Assembly: GCA_043797665.1 (NCBI GenBank) | Contig: JAZDPL010000006.1 | Location: 1-43,109 of the forward strand | Direction: 5' to 3' | DNA from: Candidatus Omnitrophota bacterium | Lineage (GTDB): Bacteria; Ratteibacteria; UBA8468; MWAK01 | DNA length: 43,109 nt | Shown: one piece after another, positions 6,166-30,720 of the stretch | How the letters are laid out: the number at the start of each line of letters is the position of its first letter | Position numbering within the stretch: the stretch's first letter is position 1 | The notes under the pieces: model-generated | Database searches by the model: none | The model's input: only the letters and a program-made list of their open reading frames with translations | What the model was told of the DNA's origin: nothing | Made by a program: the position numbers and the translations under genes

Positions 6166-6237
6166 ATTCCTCTAATTATAGGAGAGACCATTTTACCCTG
6201 TCTACAGCCTATAAAGGCTATTTTCATTTGACAAAAT
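6166..6237. repeat. Direct repeat copy 1 (~72 bp) containing divergent promoter elements
   Basis: Matches 7082-7154 with few mismatches; TTGACA 6228-6233 on plus strand and TAGACA-N18-TATAAT on minus strand. Confidence 0.85.
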
Positions 6238-6291: not shown

Positions 6292-6724
6292 ATGAAAGCC
6301 CCGGATAAGAAAGTTTTAAAAAAGGTAGTTCAATGGCTAAAATACGGTGATGATGACCTGCGACTGGCTCGTCATGGATTAACCTTAAGAAGCGGATGTC
6401 CATATCGTTTGATTGCTTACCATGCTCAGCAATGTGCGGAAAAATATCTCAAATCTTACCTGGTGTATAAAAAAGTTGATTTTCCTTATACCCACAATAT
6501 CTCTATGTTGTTGGAGTTGTGTGTCGCACAAGGACAAAGCGAATGGACTAAATTGCTCCAAGGATGCAGAAGAATTAACTCCTTTTGCTATTACCACCCG
6601 TTATCCTGGAGTAGAAGAGAAGGTAACCAAAAAAGAAGCTTCGCGTGCTATTGATATTGCTGAACGAGTGCGGCAGGTGGTTAAAGGTTTTCTCGCAAAG
6701 GTAGAAATTGACCTTTCGGCTTAA
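6292..6724 (+). pseudogene. HEPN domain protein (MNT-HEPN type), frameshifted near 6559
   Basis: First frame has WLKYGDDDL, YHAQQCAEKYLK, FPYTHNI; the expected C-terminal half (ELTPFAITTRYPG..EASRAIDIAERV) is in the +1 frame. Confidence 0.8.
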
Positions 6725-7081: not shown

Positions 7082-7175
7082 ATTCCTTTTAATTATAGGA
7101 GAGACCGTTTTACCCTGTCTACAGCCTATAAAGACTATTTTTATTTGACAAAATAGCCTACGAATAGTATACAAT
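7082..7175. promoter_or_regulatory. Divergent promoter region for XRE and pilin cassette (direct repeat copy 2, 7082-7154)
   Basis: Minus strand TAGACA-N18-TATAAT toward XRE; plus strand TTGACA 7145-7150 followed 17 nt later by TATACAAT toward the pilin. Confidence 0.65.
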
Positions 7176-7198: not shown

Positions 7199-7828
7199 AT
7201 GCATAAAAAAGGCTTTACGTTAGTGGAACTTTTAGTTGTTATTGCGATAATCTCGCTTTTAGCCGGACTACTCTTGCCTGCAATACAGAAAGGACGTAAA
7301 CAATCCCTGATTAATAAGGCTAAGGCGGAAATGGCAAGTTTTGCCAGTACCGGCGCCACAATTTATCTTGATTTAAAATCAGAAGGATATGTCCGGTTAT
7401 GTGATTATGATTCCACCGATGCCGATATTACTCTCAGTGCGCCCAATTTTACGGCACCTCTAAAAATAACCGATACCGCTACGGGTTATGCCACCACAAC
7501 CTTCACCACCAATGACTTCACTGACCTTGCTGATTTTCAAAACTATTGGGATGGTCCCTATGCAACATATCAACCCGGGGCAACTTTTAGCTCCAGTACT
7601 GGAACATACCCCAACGTGAGTGGTACCACCTGGGTTCAAAATCAAACCTACTTTCCTTACGGTACTCCCCTTGACCCATGGGGACACCCCTACGGAATGG
7701 GCTGGGAAGATACAAACGAAGAAGTAATGGTAATTTATTCTGCCGGACCGGACGGAAGCTTTCAAACGAATCCAGGGGCTACAACGGTAGCAACGGACAG
7801 TGACGATTTGCTCTATAAGTTCAGGTAA
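7199..7828 (+). CDS. Major pseudopilin/type IV pilin-like protein (GspG-like)
   Basis: [16 protein letters not shown] prepilin cleavage/methylation site; DPWGHPY and YSAGPDG C-terminal GspG motifs. Confidence 0.85.
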   Translation: MHKKGFTLVELLVVIAIISLLAGLLLPAIQKGRKQSLINKAKAEMASFASTGATIYLDLKSEGYVRLCDYDSTDADITLSAPNFTAPLKITDTATGYATTTFTTNDFTDLADFQNYWDGPYATYQPGATFSSSTGTYPNVSGTTWVQNQTYFPYGTPLDPWGHPYGMGWEDTNEEVMVIYSAGPDGSFQTNPGATTVATDSDDLLYKFR

Positions 7829-7866
7829 TACAAACGCAATAAATAATTTGATGTAGGGGTCGGATT
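7826..7866 (+). repeat. Truncated family A element with leader
   Basis: TAATACAAACGCAATAAAT..GTAGGGGTCGGATT, cut 3 nt before the ATG at 7870. Confidence 0.75.
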
Positions 7867-7869
7867 CAG

Positions 7870-9522
7870 ATGATAAAACTAAATAACAAAGGCATGGCGA
7901 TGATAGCCGCAGTATCAACTGCCATCATATTCCTGGGGTTAGTACTGACCGTTACCCTCGTAGCCACTTCTACCCATAAAAAAACCATCCAATCTTCCGA
8001 CCGGATGACCGCATTATCCCTTGCCGAAGCCGGTATCAACGATGCACTATACCGGATGAACTATCAACATTACGGTGGTGGAATTGCGGTATATCCAAAT
8101 GATGGAGATTATCTTGACCCCGACACTACGCTTGCTGATGCCTGGACATCAAGTACAACTCTGAATAACCCTTTTAATCTACCAGCAAGTAATGGGTACC
8201 AGGTTAAATTCGTTGTTGATATCGGACCGCCGGTAATTCACAAACTGGTGTCCACAGGAATTTATAACCGGAAAAGAAGAGTTATTACTGCTAATATCAG
8301 AGGTTCAAACGCAAGTGGTACTGTTCTGAATGGTCCAACCCAGGGTATTTCCGAGGCATTCAACAAACATGTCATATACGCTGACACCGTCAGCGGCACA
8401 GGAGCAACGGTTACCGGCAATATTGCCAGAATGAATATTGCCAATATATCAAGTGCTGCTGCGAACTATACCGTAACCACCGTCCCTTCCCCCCTATTTA
8501 ACCCACCCACTCCTGATGCACCCACAGATTTGCCGACGTACCTTGGCGACCAGGATGTGTACCGGGAAAGTGCGCTTGGAGTTGCTGAATTAAATGGGGG
8601 TGCATTACCGGCTGGGGTTACTTATGATAACGTTACGGATACCTTTATTTTCGGTGCCCTTTACGCTAGGACTCTTAGAGTCTATGTCAGAGCATCTGCC
8701 GAAGGTTCTCCACCCAATAATGGAAATGCCACTATTAACGGAGCAACCATTCAAAATTTTCTGAAGGCAGATGGAACCATTACCATCCAGGCAACTTCTA
8801 CCTTTTCTGGAACAGATACCGCATTAAATCCTTTAAGTGGAACTATTACCATTACCCCCGCCATTACCATTACTGGAAATCTTATAGTGAAAGGAGCAAG
8901 TTTAACCCTTAACAATGTGATTGTAAACGGAAACGTTGTTTCTGACGGAGATATCACTTTTTCTGGGGCGTCTTCTACAATTGATGCAAGCACTGCCACC
9001 GACACTCAACCAGCGATTCTGGTGAAAGCTTCCGGAGCTGCTGCCATAACAATTAGTAGTTCTCCAACCATTATTTTACGTCCAGGTCAAAATGCAGCAG
9101 TTATGTGTTATTCTACCGGAGGGGCGACTGTGAATGTAACTGATAATTTAACACCCACCTATAACGATACTAACGGTGCGCAGGCAGCTATCGTCGCCTA
9201 TTCTTCTGGAGGCACTGCAAATGTAAACATTGGTAGCGGCGGCGCGGTTACCATAGATGAGGCTACTTCTGGTGTTCCTGGAAGAGGTAGACTTATCTAT
9301 TCCGACGGAACTGGTGGTGGAATTACCCTTAATACCACTGGCACAGTATATGGTATTTTGGTTACAAACAAAACCGTTACTCTCACCTCCGGAACTTTAG
9401 AATACGACGCTTCTCTCTTTGTTAACCCACCAAACAATGATTTTGCTACCGATGTTTACAGAGGATTCTCCGGTGGCCGCCGGGTCTATCTTCCGGTACC
9501 GGGAAGTTGGAAAGAAAAATAA
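7870..9522 (+). CDS. PilX/GspK-like minor pilin with large T/G/A/N-rich beta-rich C-terminal domain
   Basis: NNKG|MAMIAAV hydrophobic N-terminus lacking Glu5; ALSLAEAGI motif; LVSTG; terminal WKE typical of PilX-like proteins. Confidence 0.7.
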   Translation: MIKLNNKGMAMIAAVSTAIIFLGLVLTVTLVATSTHKKTIQSSDRMTALSLAEAGINDALYRMNYQHYGGGIAVYPNDGDYLDPDTTLADAWTSSTTLNNPFNLPASNGYQVKFVVDIGPPVIHKLVSTGIYNRKRRVITANIRGSNASGTVLNGPTQGISEAFNKHVIYADTVSGTGATVTGNIARMNIANISSAAANYTVTTVPSPLFNPPTPDAPTDLPTYLGDQDVYRESALGVAELNGGALPAGVTYDNVTDTFIFGALYARTLRVYVRASAEGSPPNNGNATINGATIQNFLKADGTITIQATSTFSGTDTALNPLSGTITITPAITITGNLIVKGASLTLNNVIVNGNVVSDGDITFSGASSTIDASTATDTQPAILVKASGAAAITISSSPTIILRPGQNAAVMCYSTGGATVNVTDNLTPTYNDTNGAQAAIVAYSSGGTANVNIGSGGAVTIDEATSGVPGRGRLIYSDGTGGGITLNTTGTVYGILVTNKTVTLTSGTLEYDASLFVNPPNNDFATDVYRGFSGGRRVYLPVPGSWKEK

Positions 9523-9523
9523 G

Positions 9524-9988
9524 ATGAGATTCTTCGCGGCGCTCAGAATGACATCTTCACACAGGAGGCAAGGGTTTTCACTTCTGGAAATGGTGATTGC
9601 CATATTTATTATTGCTGTTGTTGTCGCCTTCTCGCTTTCTCTCCTGGCCCGCGGCTTGGGAAATTCAGCAAAATCAAGTGATTTAACTATCGCAACCGCC
9701 CTTGCCGAACAGGAAATGTCCCGGATAAAAAATATTACTTTTCCGCCGACCACCGTTGACAGACAAGGGAAATATGCCAAAACAAAGACTGACGCGGACA
9801 TACCTTACAACAACGACTTCCAAGTAGAAGTTACCAGTACCGGTTATGATGGGTCTGATCCCCCCTCTACTACAACAGTAAACGACGACACAATGCTAAG
9901 GAAGATTACCGTAAATGTCTATCGCAAAAGAGGCGACGCAAAACTCGTTACACTCATTACCTATATTGCCCGCAATGGAACGATATAA
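9524..9988 (+). CDS. PilV/GspI-like minor pilin
   Basis: RRQG|FSLLEMVIAIFII, IATALAEQEMSRIK, LRKITVNV; start at 9524 or 9548, both at or inside a repeat. Confidence 0.78.
   Translation: MRFFAALRMTSSHRRQGFSLLEMVIAIFIIAVVVAFSLSLLARGLGNSAKSSDLTIATALAEQEMSRIKNITFPPTTVDRQGKYAKTKTDADIPYNNDFQVEVTSTGYDGSDPPSTTTVNDDTMLRKITVNVYRKRGDAKLVTLITYIARNGTI
9526..9553 (-). repeat. Family C unit (TGTCATTCTGAGCGCCGCGAAGAATC) inside prepilin leader
   Basis: GAGATTCTTCGCGGCGCTCAGAATGACA closely matches the right arms of the repeats at 42955-43016 and 38999-39066. Confidence 0.85.
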
Positions 9989-10688
9989 AAAGGCCCCTGC
10001 CACGGCATACCTGCCCCCTGTCATTCCCGCATGCTGTAAGCGGGAATCCAGAGGGTTTACTTTAATGGAACTTTTAATCTGTTCCGCGATTTTAGTTATC
10101 TTAATGGCATTAATCACGGTTTTGTATAGCCGAGCCGTAAAGATTCAGCGCCTTACGATGCGGAACCGCAATGTTCAAGAAGTCGTCGCGACGCAGATGA
10201 TAGACACGTTCTTAAACGGCGGGAAGACTTTGTCTGACGGTCTAACGTACGCCACCAGAATTGAGGCGATTGACGAAACTAACGGAGATTCACCACTCTA
10301 TGTCACTTTTGCAAACTACAGTGACATAGTAAATAATAGCTATGTCCGGATTGAAATTGGAACTGAAAACTCCGTTACCACAGACACCACTCTCTATCAA
10401 AAAACCGCGTTGATATCAGGAGAATGGCCACCAGGCTCCTGGACAACAACCAAGAACTTAGACCAAAACGACAAGATTAATCTTGAAAGTGGTTCCTGGT
10501 TTGGCTGTTATGACTTAGAAGATAAAAACATCTTTGATGTCTCTGCCTACAATACAACCGAAAAACGAAGGGCGGCTACCTCAAAAGTAGAAATTTGCCT
10601 CAAAGCCAAAGATAAATCTATGCCGGAGGGTATAGCCTTTATCCTGCGCCGAATTATCACCATCCGAAACATATATCATATTGATTAA
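9975..10688 (+). CDS. PilW/GspJ-like minor pilin
   Basis: SRG|FTLMELLICSAILVIL; ATG 9975 overlaps the 3' end of the previous gene; C-terminal ITIRN. Confidence 0.75.
   Translation: MERYKKAPATAYLPPVIPACCKRESRGFTLMELLICSAILVILMALITVLYSRAVKIQRLTMRNRNVQEVVATQMIDTFLNGGKTLSDGLTYATRIEAIDETNGDSPLYVTFANYSDIVNNSYVRIEIGTENSVTTDTTLYQKTALISGEWPPGSWTTTKNLDQNDKINLESGSWFGCYDLEDKNIFDVSAYNTTEKRRAATSKVEICLKAKDKSMPEGIAFILRRIITIRNIYHID
10019..10050 (+). repeat. Family C unit inside prepilin leader
   Basis: TGTCATTCCCGCATGCTGTAAGCGGGAATCCA encodes VIPACCKRES immediately before RG|FTLME. Confidence 0.9.
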
Positions 10689-11142: not shown

Positions 11143-11162
11143 GGGAAAAATCGGCATAAAGA

Positions 11163-11356
11163 GAGATTCTTCGCCCCTGACAGTTACATTCAGTGGCTCA
11201 GAATGACAAGGTAGTTTTAGATTCCTGCTAAAGACATACCCCGAATGACAGAGGGGAAGGGATTGCCACGCCCTGTAGTGGAGCCTTTGGCACACTACAG
11301 GGCTCGCAATGACAAATCCGCAGGCTGAAGCCTGCGACTACCAAAACAGGAATGAC
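11163..11356 (-). repeat. Mosaic REP cluster (BIME-like): three co-oriented family C units, one family B unit and a partial C end
   Basis: Units 11163-11208, 11218-11250 and 11259-11314 all end AATGACA; family B at 11319-11341; CAGGAATGAC at ~11347-11356. Confidence 0.85.
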
Positions 11357-11634: not shown

Positions 11635-11946
11635 TTAATGGCTTAGCCTTTTATAGGTAGCATCCTTTCGCCGGGCTATTAACTCCACTTGAATCACTCT
11701 TTCCTTTGTGTCCAGAGAGAAGACTATTCGAATATCACCAAATTTCATTCGATATTTACCTCTTAACCGTTGTTCCATAAGGGGAATTACCTGCGGATGG
11801 ATGAGAGGATTCTGGAGGGGTACTAATTCTTCAACCTTGGTGAGAATTTTAACCTGCTCTTTTTTATTGAACGCTCTCTTTACAAGTTCTACAAAATCGT
11901 CCGGATATCTAATCTGCCAGCCCGAGCCTTCTTTTGAGTTCGTCAT
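11635..11946 (-). CDS. RelE/ParE family type II toxin
   Basis: WQIRY N-terminus; YRMKFGDIRIVFSLD..VIQVELIARRKDATY; overlaps the upstream antitoxin. Confidence 0.8.
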   Translation of the reverse strand: MTNSKEGSGWQIRYPDDFVELVKRAFNKKEQVKILTKVEELVPLQNPLIHPQVIPLMEQRLRGKYRMKFGDIRIVFSLDTKERVIQVELIARRKDATYKRLSH

Positions 11947-12166
11947 GGGTTAGCGTTTCACCTCTTTTAAACTTAACCGCGCTTTTCTGGATAATATCAA
12001 CCCAATCCGGCCGGGCCAGAATCTCTAAAGATTCTTCCTGGTGGGAAACGTACGTGGCTATTGCTTCCTCAAAAATATCTTTGACCTTTTTGTTCTCAAG
12101 AACCGCGAGTAAACGAACCATCTTGGCACTCTCCGGTGAAATTTTAATGCACATCGTCGTTTCCAT
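11909..12166 (-). CDS. Antitoxin (RHH/RelB-like)
   Basis: 85 aa; N-terminal beta-strand plus helices; ESLEIL..GETLTHDELKRRLGL C-terminus typical of RelE partners; AGGAAGGAG RBS. Confidence 0.75.
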   Translation of the reverse strand: METTMCIKISPESAKMVRLLAVLENKKVKDIFEEAIATYVSHQEESLEILARPDWVDIIQKSAVKFKRGETLTHDELKRRLGLAD

Positions 12167-17414: not shown

Positions 17415-17473
17415 TGTCATTCCCGCATGTGCCTGCCCCTGCATGCGGTAAGCAGGGGTTAATCGGGAATCCA
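17415..17473 (+). repeat. Family C unit with nested internal hairpin
   Basis: TGTCATTCCCG...CCCCTGC-atgcggtaa-GCAGGGG...CGGGAATCCA at the left edge of the catabolic island. Confidence 0.8.
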
Positions 17474-20587: not shown

Positions 20588-21412
20588 ATGGTTAAGAAAA
20601 TACTAAAGAGGTTGCTTAATCCCTTCTGGATGGGATTAAGGGTAGGTAGGAGGGGTATTGACCCTTTTGAGACACGTTTCTATTTAAGGGGTAACGAACC
20701 ACACTTGTTAGCGGATAAAGACAGCCAATATGTCTGGACCAGACACAATCATGCCTTCACCTTGATAGAACTTTTGGTCGTCATCGCCATCATAGCGCTT
20801 CTGGCGGCGATGCTGCTGCCGGCGCTCAGTCAGGCAAGGGAAAAGGCCAGGCAGTCACAGTGTATGAACAACTTGAAACAAATCGGACTGGCTATCGTGA
20901 TGTATGCCAATGACTATGAGGATTGGATGCTTCCCAACAATCAGGTCGACGGTATCCCAAGTTTCTGGGTTAATGTCCTGTCGGGAAGGTACCTGCAAGG
21001 AACAGGCGGTGGCACAACGTGGCATAAAGCCTTCCACTGCCCTTCCGACCAGACACCTTACGATCACATCTGGACTGCCGGCAAAGAAAAATTGAGCTAC
21101 GGTTACAACAACTCGATGGGTGATGCAGAATACTATATTTGGTGGCCTGCGCTGCAGAATAGGCATTCCTTCAAAAAGATGGGGTATGTCCCACCAGACA
21201 CTGCACTGGTAACAGAAGTAGGGATTGATCAGTCTACCTCCACTTACTATATGCGTTGGAACGTTACCAACTATAACGCAGATTCCCTCATGAGTTTTCC
21301 CCACGCTGGGAATAAGATCGCCAATGTCCTCTTCATTGATGGTCATGTGGAATCGGTCTCAACTTCGCAGGCATCATCGTGGGTTTGGCCCAAGTGGTTG
21401 GTTTTCCAGTAA
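20588..21412 (+). CDS. Prepilin-type N-terminal cleavage/methylation and H-X9-DG domain protein (DUF1559-like)
   Basis: [59 protein letters not shown]; unusually long leader. Confidence 0.9.
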
Positions 21413-29451: not shown

Positions 29452-30720
29452 ATGAAAGAAAAAAGAGAACGCCAACCGGACCAGGAACGGATAAAGGGAT
29501 TGCAAGAAGCCCTGGAAAAGAACGGACTTGACCTTTTGGTCTTACGTCTGCCGGAAAATGTCACCGCGTTCGGCGGCTACTATCCGCTCACCGGACTGAA
29601 TTTTTTACTCTTTCCCAGAGAGGATGAGCCGGTTCTGTTGGTGCCGGAGAGTGAAAAAAGTGAAGCCGAAGAGGGCTGGTGGAATAATCTAATTACCTTT
29701 GAATTCGGAACCATAACCGCAACGGCACCGTACCGGAGGATTGAAGAAATCTTAAAGGAGATAACCTTCCGAAAAGGAAAACAATGGAAACGAATCGGTT
29801 ACGAAGGTAGTTTTGAGTTTCTGGCACCGGCTCTTTTGAGTGGGGAAGGCTTTTATCCGGCTCGACCTACCCACAAAATTCTGCAAAAAACCTTTGAAAA
29901 TGGAGAACTGGTGGATTGTACGGACCTGCTCCATAATCTCCGGGCGATTAAGACCAAAGAGGAAATCGTAAAACTCCGGACGGCCGGTAAAATTGCGGAA
30001 ATAGGACTGGCAAAGTTTAAAGAAGTAGCCGCTCCGGGCAGGAGTCCCGCAGAGATTGCCGGATTGGTCACCTCGGCCATTATGAAAGAGGGCATCGGAA
30101 TTGGTGGCGCCCAAAAAGTTGGTGTTTTTCCCCAGGTTACCTCTGGTCCGGAAGATACTGCCAAAGCCTGGCGTCCCTGCGTCATTACCACCAATCGTGT
30201 AATTCAAGAAGGAGACCTGGTGTTGATAGAATTGGGAGTGGTCGCCGACGGATTCTGGGCGGATGTAACCAGAACCCGGGTGGCCGGAAAGGCTTCGGCA
30301 AGACAAAAAGAAGTATTCCGGGTAATCCTGGAAGCCCAACAGGCCGCAAAAGACAAAATCCATCCCGGGGTTGCTTGTTCTGAAGTTGATGGGGCCGCAC
30401 GTACCATCATAGAAAAGGCTGGCCTCGGCGAATATTTCGTCCACATTACCGGACACGGCATCGGGTTCCGTTACCATGAGCCCATTCCCTTCTTACATCC
30501 GGCAAATACCGATATCCTTAAGGCCGGCATGGTCTTTTCTGTGGAGCCGGGAGTATATCTTCCCGGATTTGGCGGCATCAGGATAGAAGACGTCGTAGCC
30601 TTAACCGAAAAGGGAATTCTTACCTTAACCAACTTTGAACGTGACTTAGATGTAGGGGTCGGATTTATCCGACCCGCGGGCTTGATAAATCAAGCCCCTA
30701 CGATTGTTGATGTAAATTAA
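29452..30720 (+). CDS. M24 family (Xaa-Pro peptidase/creatinase-like) hydrolase
   Basis: RAIKT.EEI, GFWADVTRT, HITGHGIG, HE, SVEPGVY..GGIRIED; C-terminal tail is REP-derived. Confidence 0.88.
   Translation: MKEKRERQPDQERIKGLQEALEKNGLDLLVLRLPENVTAFGGYYPLTGLNFLLFPREDEPVLLVPESEKSEAEEGWWNNLITFEFGTITATAPYRRIEEILKEITFRKGKQWKRIGYEGSFEFLAPALLSGEGFYPARPTHKILQKTFENGELVDCTDLLHNLRAIKTKEEIVKLRTAGKIAEIGLAKFKEVAAPGRSPAEIAGLVTSAIMKEGIGIGGAQKVGVFPQVTSGPEDTAKAWRPCVITTNRVIQEGDLVLIELGVVADGFWADVTRTRVAGKASARQKEVFRVILEAQQAAKDKIHPGVACSEVDGAARTIIEKAGLGEYFVHITGHGIGFRYHEPIPFLHPANTDILKAGMVFSVEPGVYLPGFGGIRIEDVVALTEKGILTLTNFERDLDVGVGFIRPAGLINQAPTIVDVN
30652..30701 (+). repeat. Family A REP inside the 3' end of the M24 gene
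   Basis: Exact 50-bp copy, translated as VGVGFIRPAGLINQAPT. Confidence 0.92.

Follow-up and report, generated by a model that had tools for sequence, protein, structure and literature searches.

The pilin operon and its repeats

The window, that is, the whole stretch of 43,109 nt analysed here, contains a compact pilin operon of four genes, located at 7199-7828, 7870-9522, 9524-9988 and 9975-10688 according to its list of open reading frames. Palindromic repeats lie at the 5' ends of the last two. The following features can be differentiated:

7199..7828 (+): major-pilin/GspG-like prepilin, first gene of the operon, with a short, repeat-free leader (MHKKG); PF07963 at 33.7 bits and a weak T2SSG match
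7870..9522 (+): open reading frame of a putative PilX/GspK-like minor pilin, matched by the gene order in the genome G004; its stop lies 1 nt before ATG 9524
9524..9988 (+): minor pilin 1, starting at 9524 (17-aa leader) or at 9548 (9-aa leader); Gly(-1) at 9572-9574; PF07963 at 32.1 bits
9527..9553 (-): CGTC-type REP-like hairpin in reverse orientation, 27 nt or 9 codons long, core 9528-9552; absent from the G004 and G013 orthologues
9975..10688 (+): minor pilin 2, whose ATG overlaps the end of pilin 1; 27-aa leader; Gly(-1) at 10053-10055; PF07963 at 28.5 bits
9994..10047 (+): insertion of 54 nt, in frame, as seen in the alignment with the G004 orthologue; its ends are uncertain by a few bases
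10019..10051 (+): CGTC-type REP-like hairpin with a TGTC tag, an 8-bp stem, a 9-nt loop and a CCA tail; core 10020-10048

In the Pfam search, the prepilin N-methylation motif (PF07963) was above its cut-off in three of the four genes, and 7870-9522 had no match. The position of the latter gene, its KKG|M motif and the absence of Glu+5 suggest a PilX/GspK-like protein; minor pilins 1 and 2 are probably PilV/GspI-like and PilW/GspJ-like, respectively. The class III signal peptides (SPIII) of type 4 pilins have a hydrophilic, cytoplasmic leader of variable length which ends in Gly and is cut off by the peptidase, together with Glu+5 and a hydrophobic helix (Pelicic, 2023; PMC10191384). Both minor pilins carry the whole set expected of a type 4 prepilin, namely a hydrophilic leader with a terminal Gly (or Ala), Glu+5 and a hydrophobic stretch of 20-25 residues, as judged from PF07963, charge and hydropathy. 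The genome also has one match to the prepilin peptidase family PF06750, in an open and intact frame of 275 aa, and, for the assembly machinery, PF00482 and PF00437 matches with several assembly ATPase and platform genes.

In the frame of pilin 2, the hairpin encodes VIPACCKRES (10020-10049); the next codons are those of Arg, Gly(-1) (10053) and Phe (10056). The preliminary description, which had placed an in-frame repeat with this peptide just before the G|FTLME site, was right. The region 10012-10060 has a fold z of -3.5. As regards composition, the leader contains six K/R and two D/E residues and no transmembrane-like stretch (maximum 13-residue hydropathy of 1.2, versus 3.2 in the helix of the same protein). 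A Rfam search of 9400-10200 returned a single match at chance level (E 0.82).

Both repeats exceed chance, since the CGTC-type pattern has 419 matches in the 2.69-Mb genome versus nine in a shuffle; the figures for the GTAG-type pattern are 550 and 11. The family of each window repeat has approximately 240 genomic copies, and CGTC-type elements are 25-33 nt long. Profile searches of the genome yielded 1079 units in 642 clusters (1112 units when one further family is added). These clusters are mostly intergenic: 567 of 658 are not wholly within called genes, while 79 of 642 are wholly within them and 51 of 642 lie deep inside genes. Among the 524 clusters near a stop codon, 327 begin between -15 and +29 nt from it. 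Two matches to Y1_Tnp (Y1 transposase-like) are present in the genome, one of them a 161-aa frame on contig C47.

Several minor observations concern the same repeats and the surroundings of the operon. The ATG of the PilX-like gene (7870) is adjoined by a truncated GTAG-type repeat (7852-7868). A cluster at 11160-11345, made up of four repeats from different families, separates the OB-fold gene from a ParE-like toxin-antitoxin pair (11635-12166), and a GTAG-type dimer (30650-30702) is translated as the C-terminal residues of the called gene 29452-30720. Just 5' of the operon, a 65-nt direct repeat with 95% identity (6173-6237 and 7090-7154) flanks a split HEPN-like region and an HTH gene; the pair may be the mark of an insertion or duplication. 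The HEPN-domain frame (6292-6724) appears divided between two reading frames (6292-6654 and 6413-6724).

Start codons and history of the insertions

Whether the repeats are translated depends on the start codons. In minor pilin 2, ATG 9975 is the sole in-frame ATG, GTG or TTG from 9975 to the cleavage site, which bears out the earlier statement that no start lies between repeat and site; rare-start codons upstream of the site are CTG 10011 and, inside the repeat, ATT 10023. The database gene call (237 aa) uses 9975 as well. In G004, the orthologue can start only at this same ATG, which again overlaps the upstream gene; its leader has nine residues and lacks exactly 54 nt. Orthologues begin with MERYRTKKG or MAQYRRKRG, that is, with nine residues instead of 27; three database proteins, 58-59% identical to pilin 2, start with MERYRTKKG|F, compared with MERYKKA...RESRG|F here. 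The insertion starts with some 25 nt that are unique in the genome and otherwise consists of the greater part of the repeat. Another repeat was considered as the source of those first 25 nt, and a second copy was not found in the genome.

In minor pilin 1, the repeat lies between ATG 9524, which it adjoins, and the G|FSLLE site. ATG 9524 directly follows the upstream stop, as does the pilin 1 start in G004 and G013, and without the 27-nt repeat the leader would have eight residues, much as in G013. The other candidate, ATG 9548, is inside the end of the repeat, supplied by its reversed tag, and results in a normal 9-residue leader; it is the 9548 form, and not the 9524 form, that is present in the protein database. 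Hence, of the proposal that a repeat overlaps both ATGs of this gene and is translated, the repeat itself proved real, but its translation is not forced. It is translated only with ATG 9524 in use, for which the chances seem evenly balanced.

In the strongest rival explanation, neither repeat is translated: each would belong to the 5' sequence, with the start of pilin 1 at 9548 and that of pilin 2 either at 10065 or at a rare codon within the repeat. That many 5' REPs are mis-annotated starts is a caveat raised by Di Nocera et al. (2013; PMC3733652), who treat most N-terminal copies as possible mis-annotation. The database call at 9548 and the predicted pairing of ATG 9524 (unpaired probability 0.01) agree with this rival, and so does a GAGGG upstream of ATG 10065 (Met+4), from which a leaderless product could arise, ATG 9975 being without a Shine-Dalgarno motif; moreover, the conservation of ATG 9975 is partly imposed by the Asn-Gly codons of pilin 1. 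Against it, for pilin 2, stand the orthologues that begin MERY or MAQY at the same ATG and the database call from 9975. Met+4, furthermore, is not conserved in the orthologues, and a start there loses Phe+1. For pilin 1, the rival has to face the position of ATG 9524 right after the upstream stop, shared with G004 and G013. In pilin 1 the repeat may plausibly be untranslated, in pilin 2 this is unlikely, and as an account of both the rival is rather improbable.

Orthologous leaders were compared, as recommended in the preliminary description. Pilin 1 has matches in 39 of the 65 genomes of the phylum, its own included. None of the 29 foreign orthologous loci (pilin 2 is present in 27) carries a leader repeat in either pilin, as far as can be told with repeat profiles trained on the own genome, which may miss diverged families. 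The minimal leaders at these loci have 4-18 residues; two lack a common start codon and one has repeats 5' of its start. The polarity of the change is given by G004, with its 9-residue leader and 54 nt less, and the leader insertions are recent and lineage-specific.

Orthologues of the window pilins were not found in the sister genome G001 (70% complete) with the queries used. Three other pilins do provide pairs of empty and filled leaders between G001 and the present genome: 6 versus 37 aa; 7 versus 20 aa; and two copies versus one of a 9-codon unit. The mature parts of these pairs are 83-97% identical, with dN/dS values of 0.17, 0.12 and 0.05 (0.15 in a repeat-free control pilin). For window pilin 1 versus G013, dN/dS is 0.15 at a near-saturated dS; comparisons with G004 are saturated. 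Mature pilins behind repeat-filled leaders are under purifying selection and, since their dN/dS lies between 0.05 and 0.17, they are not the pseudogenes that had been contemplated.

Repeats in prepilin leaders across the genome

The genome contains 82 prepilin-like motifs, 60 of them of one paralogous type, which were used as anchors (gene calls and anchors were obtained with custom scripts). Two controls were compared with them: (i) 647 genes whose anchors come from homology with 1.20 Mb (of approximately 1.6 Mb) of one relative, G003; and (ii) 354 genes with the anchor placed at a hydrophobic segment of the N-terminus (signal or transmembrane). Control genes with no N-terminal match, at a contig edge or with no start were dropped, the relative's own repeats were masked, and anchors were trimmed. 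Translation was considered forced when the stretch from the last possible start to the anchor includes 15 nt of repeat or more.

The expected enrichment of repeats within 150 nt of prepilin motifs did not materialize: 25 of 82 prepilins have such a repeat, compared with 196 of 647 other genes (p = 1.0); among all non-pilin called genes, the count is 460 of 2189. Forced translation gave a different picture. It applies to 13 of 82 prepilins versus three of 647 other N-termini (p = 8e-11) and six of 354 signal/transmembrane N-termini (p = 2e-6). With paralogous events collapsed, 10 of 79 remain (p = 3e-8 and 8e-5 against the two controls), and with the 27-nt element described below also dropped, six of 79 (p = 9e-5 and 0.011). 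All 82 prepilins have an in-frame start; for intergenic repeats, 1339 of the 5028 frames tried (27%) are open from a start codon. Equal proximity together with an excess of forced translation indicates that repeats survive in leaders and are not drawn to pilin genes generally. The notion of the leader as a safe harbour for repeats, advanced in the preliminary description, is therefore supported in the form of passive tolerance. Repeat density, nonetheless, is approximately 5.2 per kb of non-repeat DNA in leaders, 2.4 in intergenic and 0.04 in coding DNA; a leader density above the intergenic one speaks against pure tolerance, which does not predict an excess.

Leaders are the most permissive coding site and not the sole one, as the 51 clusters deep inside other genes illustrate. 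Among the nine coding clusters that are comparable with G001, seven differ by zero or by multiples of three, the two exceptions being at gene ends; non-coding length differences, in contrast, are evenly spread over the frames (34/30/27). One repeat lies in frame within the N-terminal tail of a gene (G000 C79:122009-122584) that presumably encodes signal peptidase I. In-frame repeat dimers are found deep inside the genes at C1:3116-5587, C21:42118-44592 and C33:32411-34270 of the same genome, which we take to be DNA polymerase I, a tRNA synthetase and GidA. The 60-member prepilin type, of which window 20588-21412 is a copy with a DUF1559 match, includes several non-repeat leaders of 40-60 codons, and many of its leaders end in Ala or Ser instead of Gly. 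A scan of GTDB with a pattern too loose to give an estimate of prevalence retrieved at least 121 loci, with a full repeat in two among the matches listed.

What is directly established comprises the insertion and the frame it lies in, a start codon that is conserved, an operon and a peptidase gene that are both intact, and, across the genome, an excess of repeats with forced translation in prepilin leaders. Translation of the repeat followed by cleavage of the leader is likely. The explanation that we consider probable is that in-frame REP-type insertions in pilin leaders, translated and then removed by the peptidase, persist as near-neutral passengers. Mobile REP-type hairpins would land just 3' of stop codons, as their distribution suggests (the repeat cores start 6 nt after the upstream stop in pilin 1 and 32 nt after it in pilin 2). 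Because the genes of a pilin operon are tightly packed or overlapping, a repeat after the upstream stop falls inside the leader of the next pilin. The repeat of pilin 2 would then be translated within the 27-residue leader and cut off at G|F by the prepilin peptidase. Constraint on a prepilin begins at Gly(-1) and not at Met, because what comes before is a variable, cytoplasmic leader that the peptidase takes off (Pelicic, 2023; PMC10191384); therefore, an insertion is likely near neutral as long as the frame stays open and the leader hydrophilic. Selection on the leader would demand only (i) an open frame; (ii) a hydrophilic, positive leader; and (iii) Gly(-1).

It had also been suggested that the hairpins tune translation or the stoichiometry of the minor pilins, in which case they would be retained for, e.g., coupling the initiation of pilin 1 to the termination of the upstream gene. 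REPs near stop codons can affect translation. In the predicted fold of the pilin 1 hairpin, ATG 9524, one base past the upstream stop, is buried. On the other hand, 9515-9600 folds no better than shuffled sequence (z 0.14), the pilin 2 hairpin begins 44 nt 3' of its ATG, and families, orientations and copy numbers vary, also between sister species. With no leader repeat at any of the 29 orthologous loci, the trait is lineage-specific, and retention for tuning is unlikely. The idea that pilin heads or leaders are exchanged by recombination at the repeats fares worst and is very improbable. In its favour, the CGTC-1 elements of Neisseria are the dRS3 elements (PMC3733652). The latter are linked to recombination, and gene conversion could account for six different pilins having the same 27-nt hairpin in identical register. 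But the two window repeats belong to different families in opposite orientation, and head swapping fails because both are located ahead of residue +1 and the mature parts of the pilins can be aligned over their whole length with orthologues that are syntenic and free of repeats.

Known repeats and the 27-nt hairpin

Intragenic REPs and Rickettsia palindromic elements (RPEs) are already known; no description of repeat-filled prepilin leaders was found in the literature searched, which took in few subscription papers. The window repeats resemble the CGTC-tagged REPs of Di Nocera et al. (2013; PMC3733652) in that (i) they have a terminal tag, TGTC at 10019 and, on the minus strand, at 9553-9550; and (ii) there are hundreds of copies, mainly intergenic and just past stops near gene 3' ends, some of them in frame within genes. 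Those REPs also have a CCA tail and a stem of 8-9 bp starting with AT; the pilin 2 repeat shows both (with 8 bp), and the stem of the pilin 1 repeat is interrupted. The 9-nt loop of the pilin 2 repeat, however, is longer than the 4-5 nt typical of those REPs, from which a few species differ, and, in consequence, the window repeats are called CGTC-type and not placed in families 1-4. The word "pilin" is absent from the text of PMC3733652 and from four of its supplements. In comparison with that study, the cleavage motif here anchors the reading frame and reveals a class-specific excess.

RPEs are likewise palindromic repeats joined in frame to unrelated proteins (PMC10969869), and 79 of the 642 clusters here are such insertions in unrelated genes. 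But while RPEs, at approximately 150 bp, are proposed to contribute to the protein product, the insertions described here have 27-54 nt and would be removed by processing; the elements, of 25-33 nt, do not fit the RPE-1 type, which has that larger size and a conserved encoded peptide. With respect to class III signal peptides, the leaders agree in their hydrophilic, cytoplasmic nature, Gly, Glu+5 and hydrophobic helix (PMC10191384), and differ from the usual ones in that their length comes from recent repeat insertion, their orthologues having minimal leaders.

Since the G|F motif fixes the reading frame, the old doubt over N-terminal intragenic REPs (real insertion or mis-annotated start) could be turned into a measured, class-specific effect. 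The implication is that prepilin peptidase and membrane targeting ignore most of the leader sequence. No new pilus function is indicated. For annotation, a warning follows: long repeat-derived pilin leaders are often real, and starts at Met+4 lose the pilin signature.

A different element is a 27-nt (9-codon) hairpin with a 4-nt tag, present in 65 genomic copies: 40 non-coding, 19 in called genes and six on prepilin junctions. The junction copies lie exactly between the Gly(-1) and Phe(+1) codons, and the 3' end of the hairpin re-creates Gln-Gly before Phe; one empty/filled pair differs by 27 nt. Within the phylum, the hairpin occurs in 10 of 65 genomes and on pilin junctions in three of 65. 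Copies lie on C7, C63, C68 and C86 of the genome, and tandem copies occur in G001. Junction copies are also present in G001, in G011 and in three metagenome contigs, two of them near-identical to G001; the G011 copy sits at the G|F junction of a likely orthologue (as judged by eye) of the 7199-7828 prepilin.

An insertion target of the type GG-purine^T would explain the register of the junction copies, because leaders hold 14 internal sites of this kind versus approximately 40 junctions. It would not explain their rate: the 12 copies at GGG^T comprise the six junctions and six coding sites, with none at the 2828 non-coding GGG^T sites of the genome. Gene conversion is an alternative, as three of the six junction copies lie in one operon. 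That the prepilin cleavage junction is a true landing hotspot of this hairpin, and not only a refuge, is a tentative and somewhat unlikely proposition. If it were so, a DNA parasite would be homing to the site of a host protease and be erased from the protein by the host peptidase, a silence comparable to that of inteins, reached with no catalytic domain of its own. As for the non-coding copies, many are nested in other repeats; the one in the window (17432-17458) is nested in a CGTC-type repeat.
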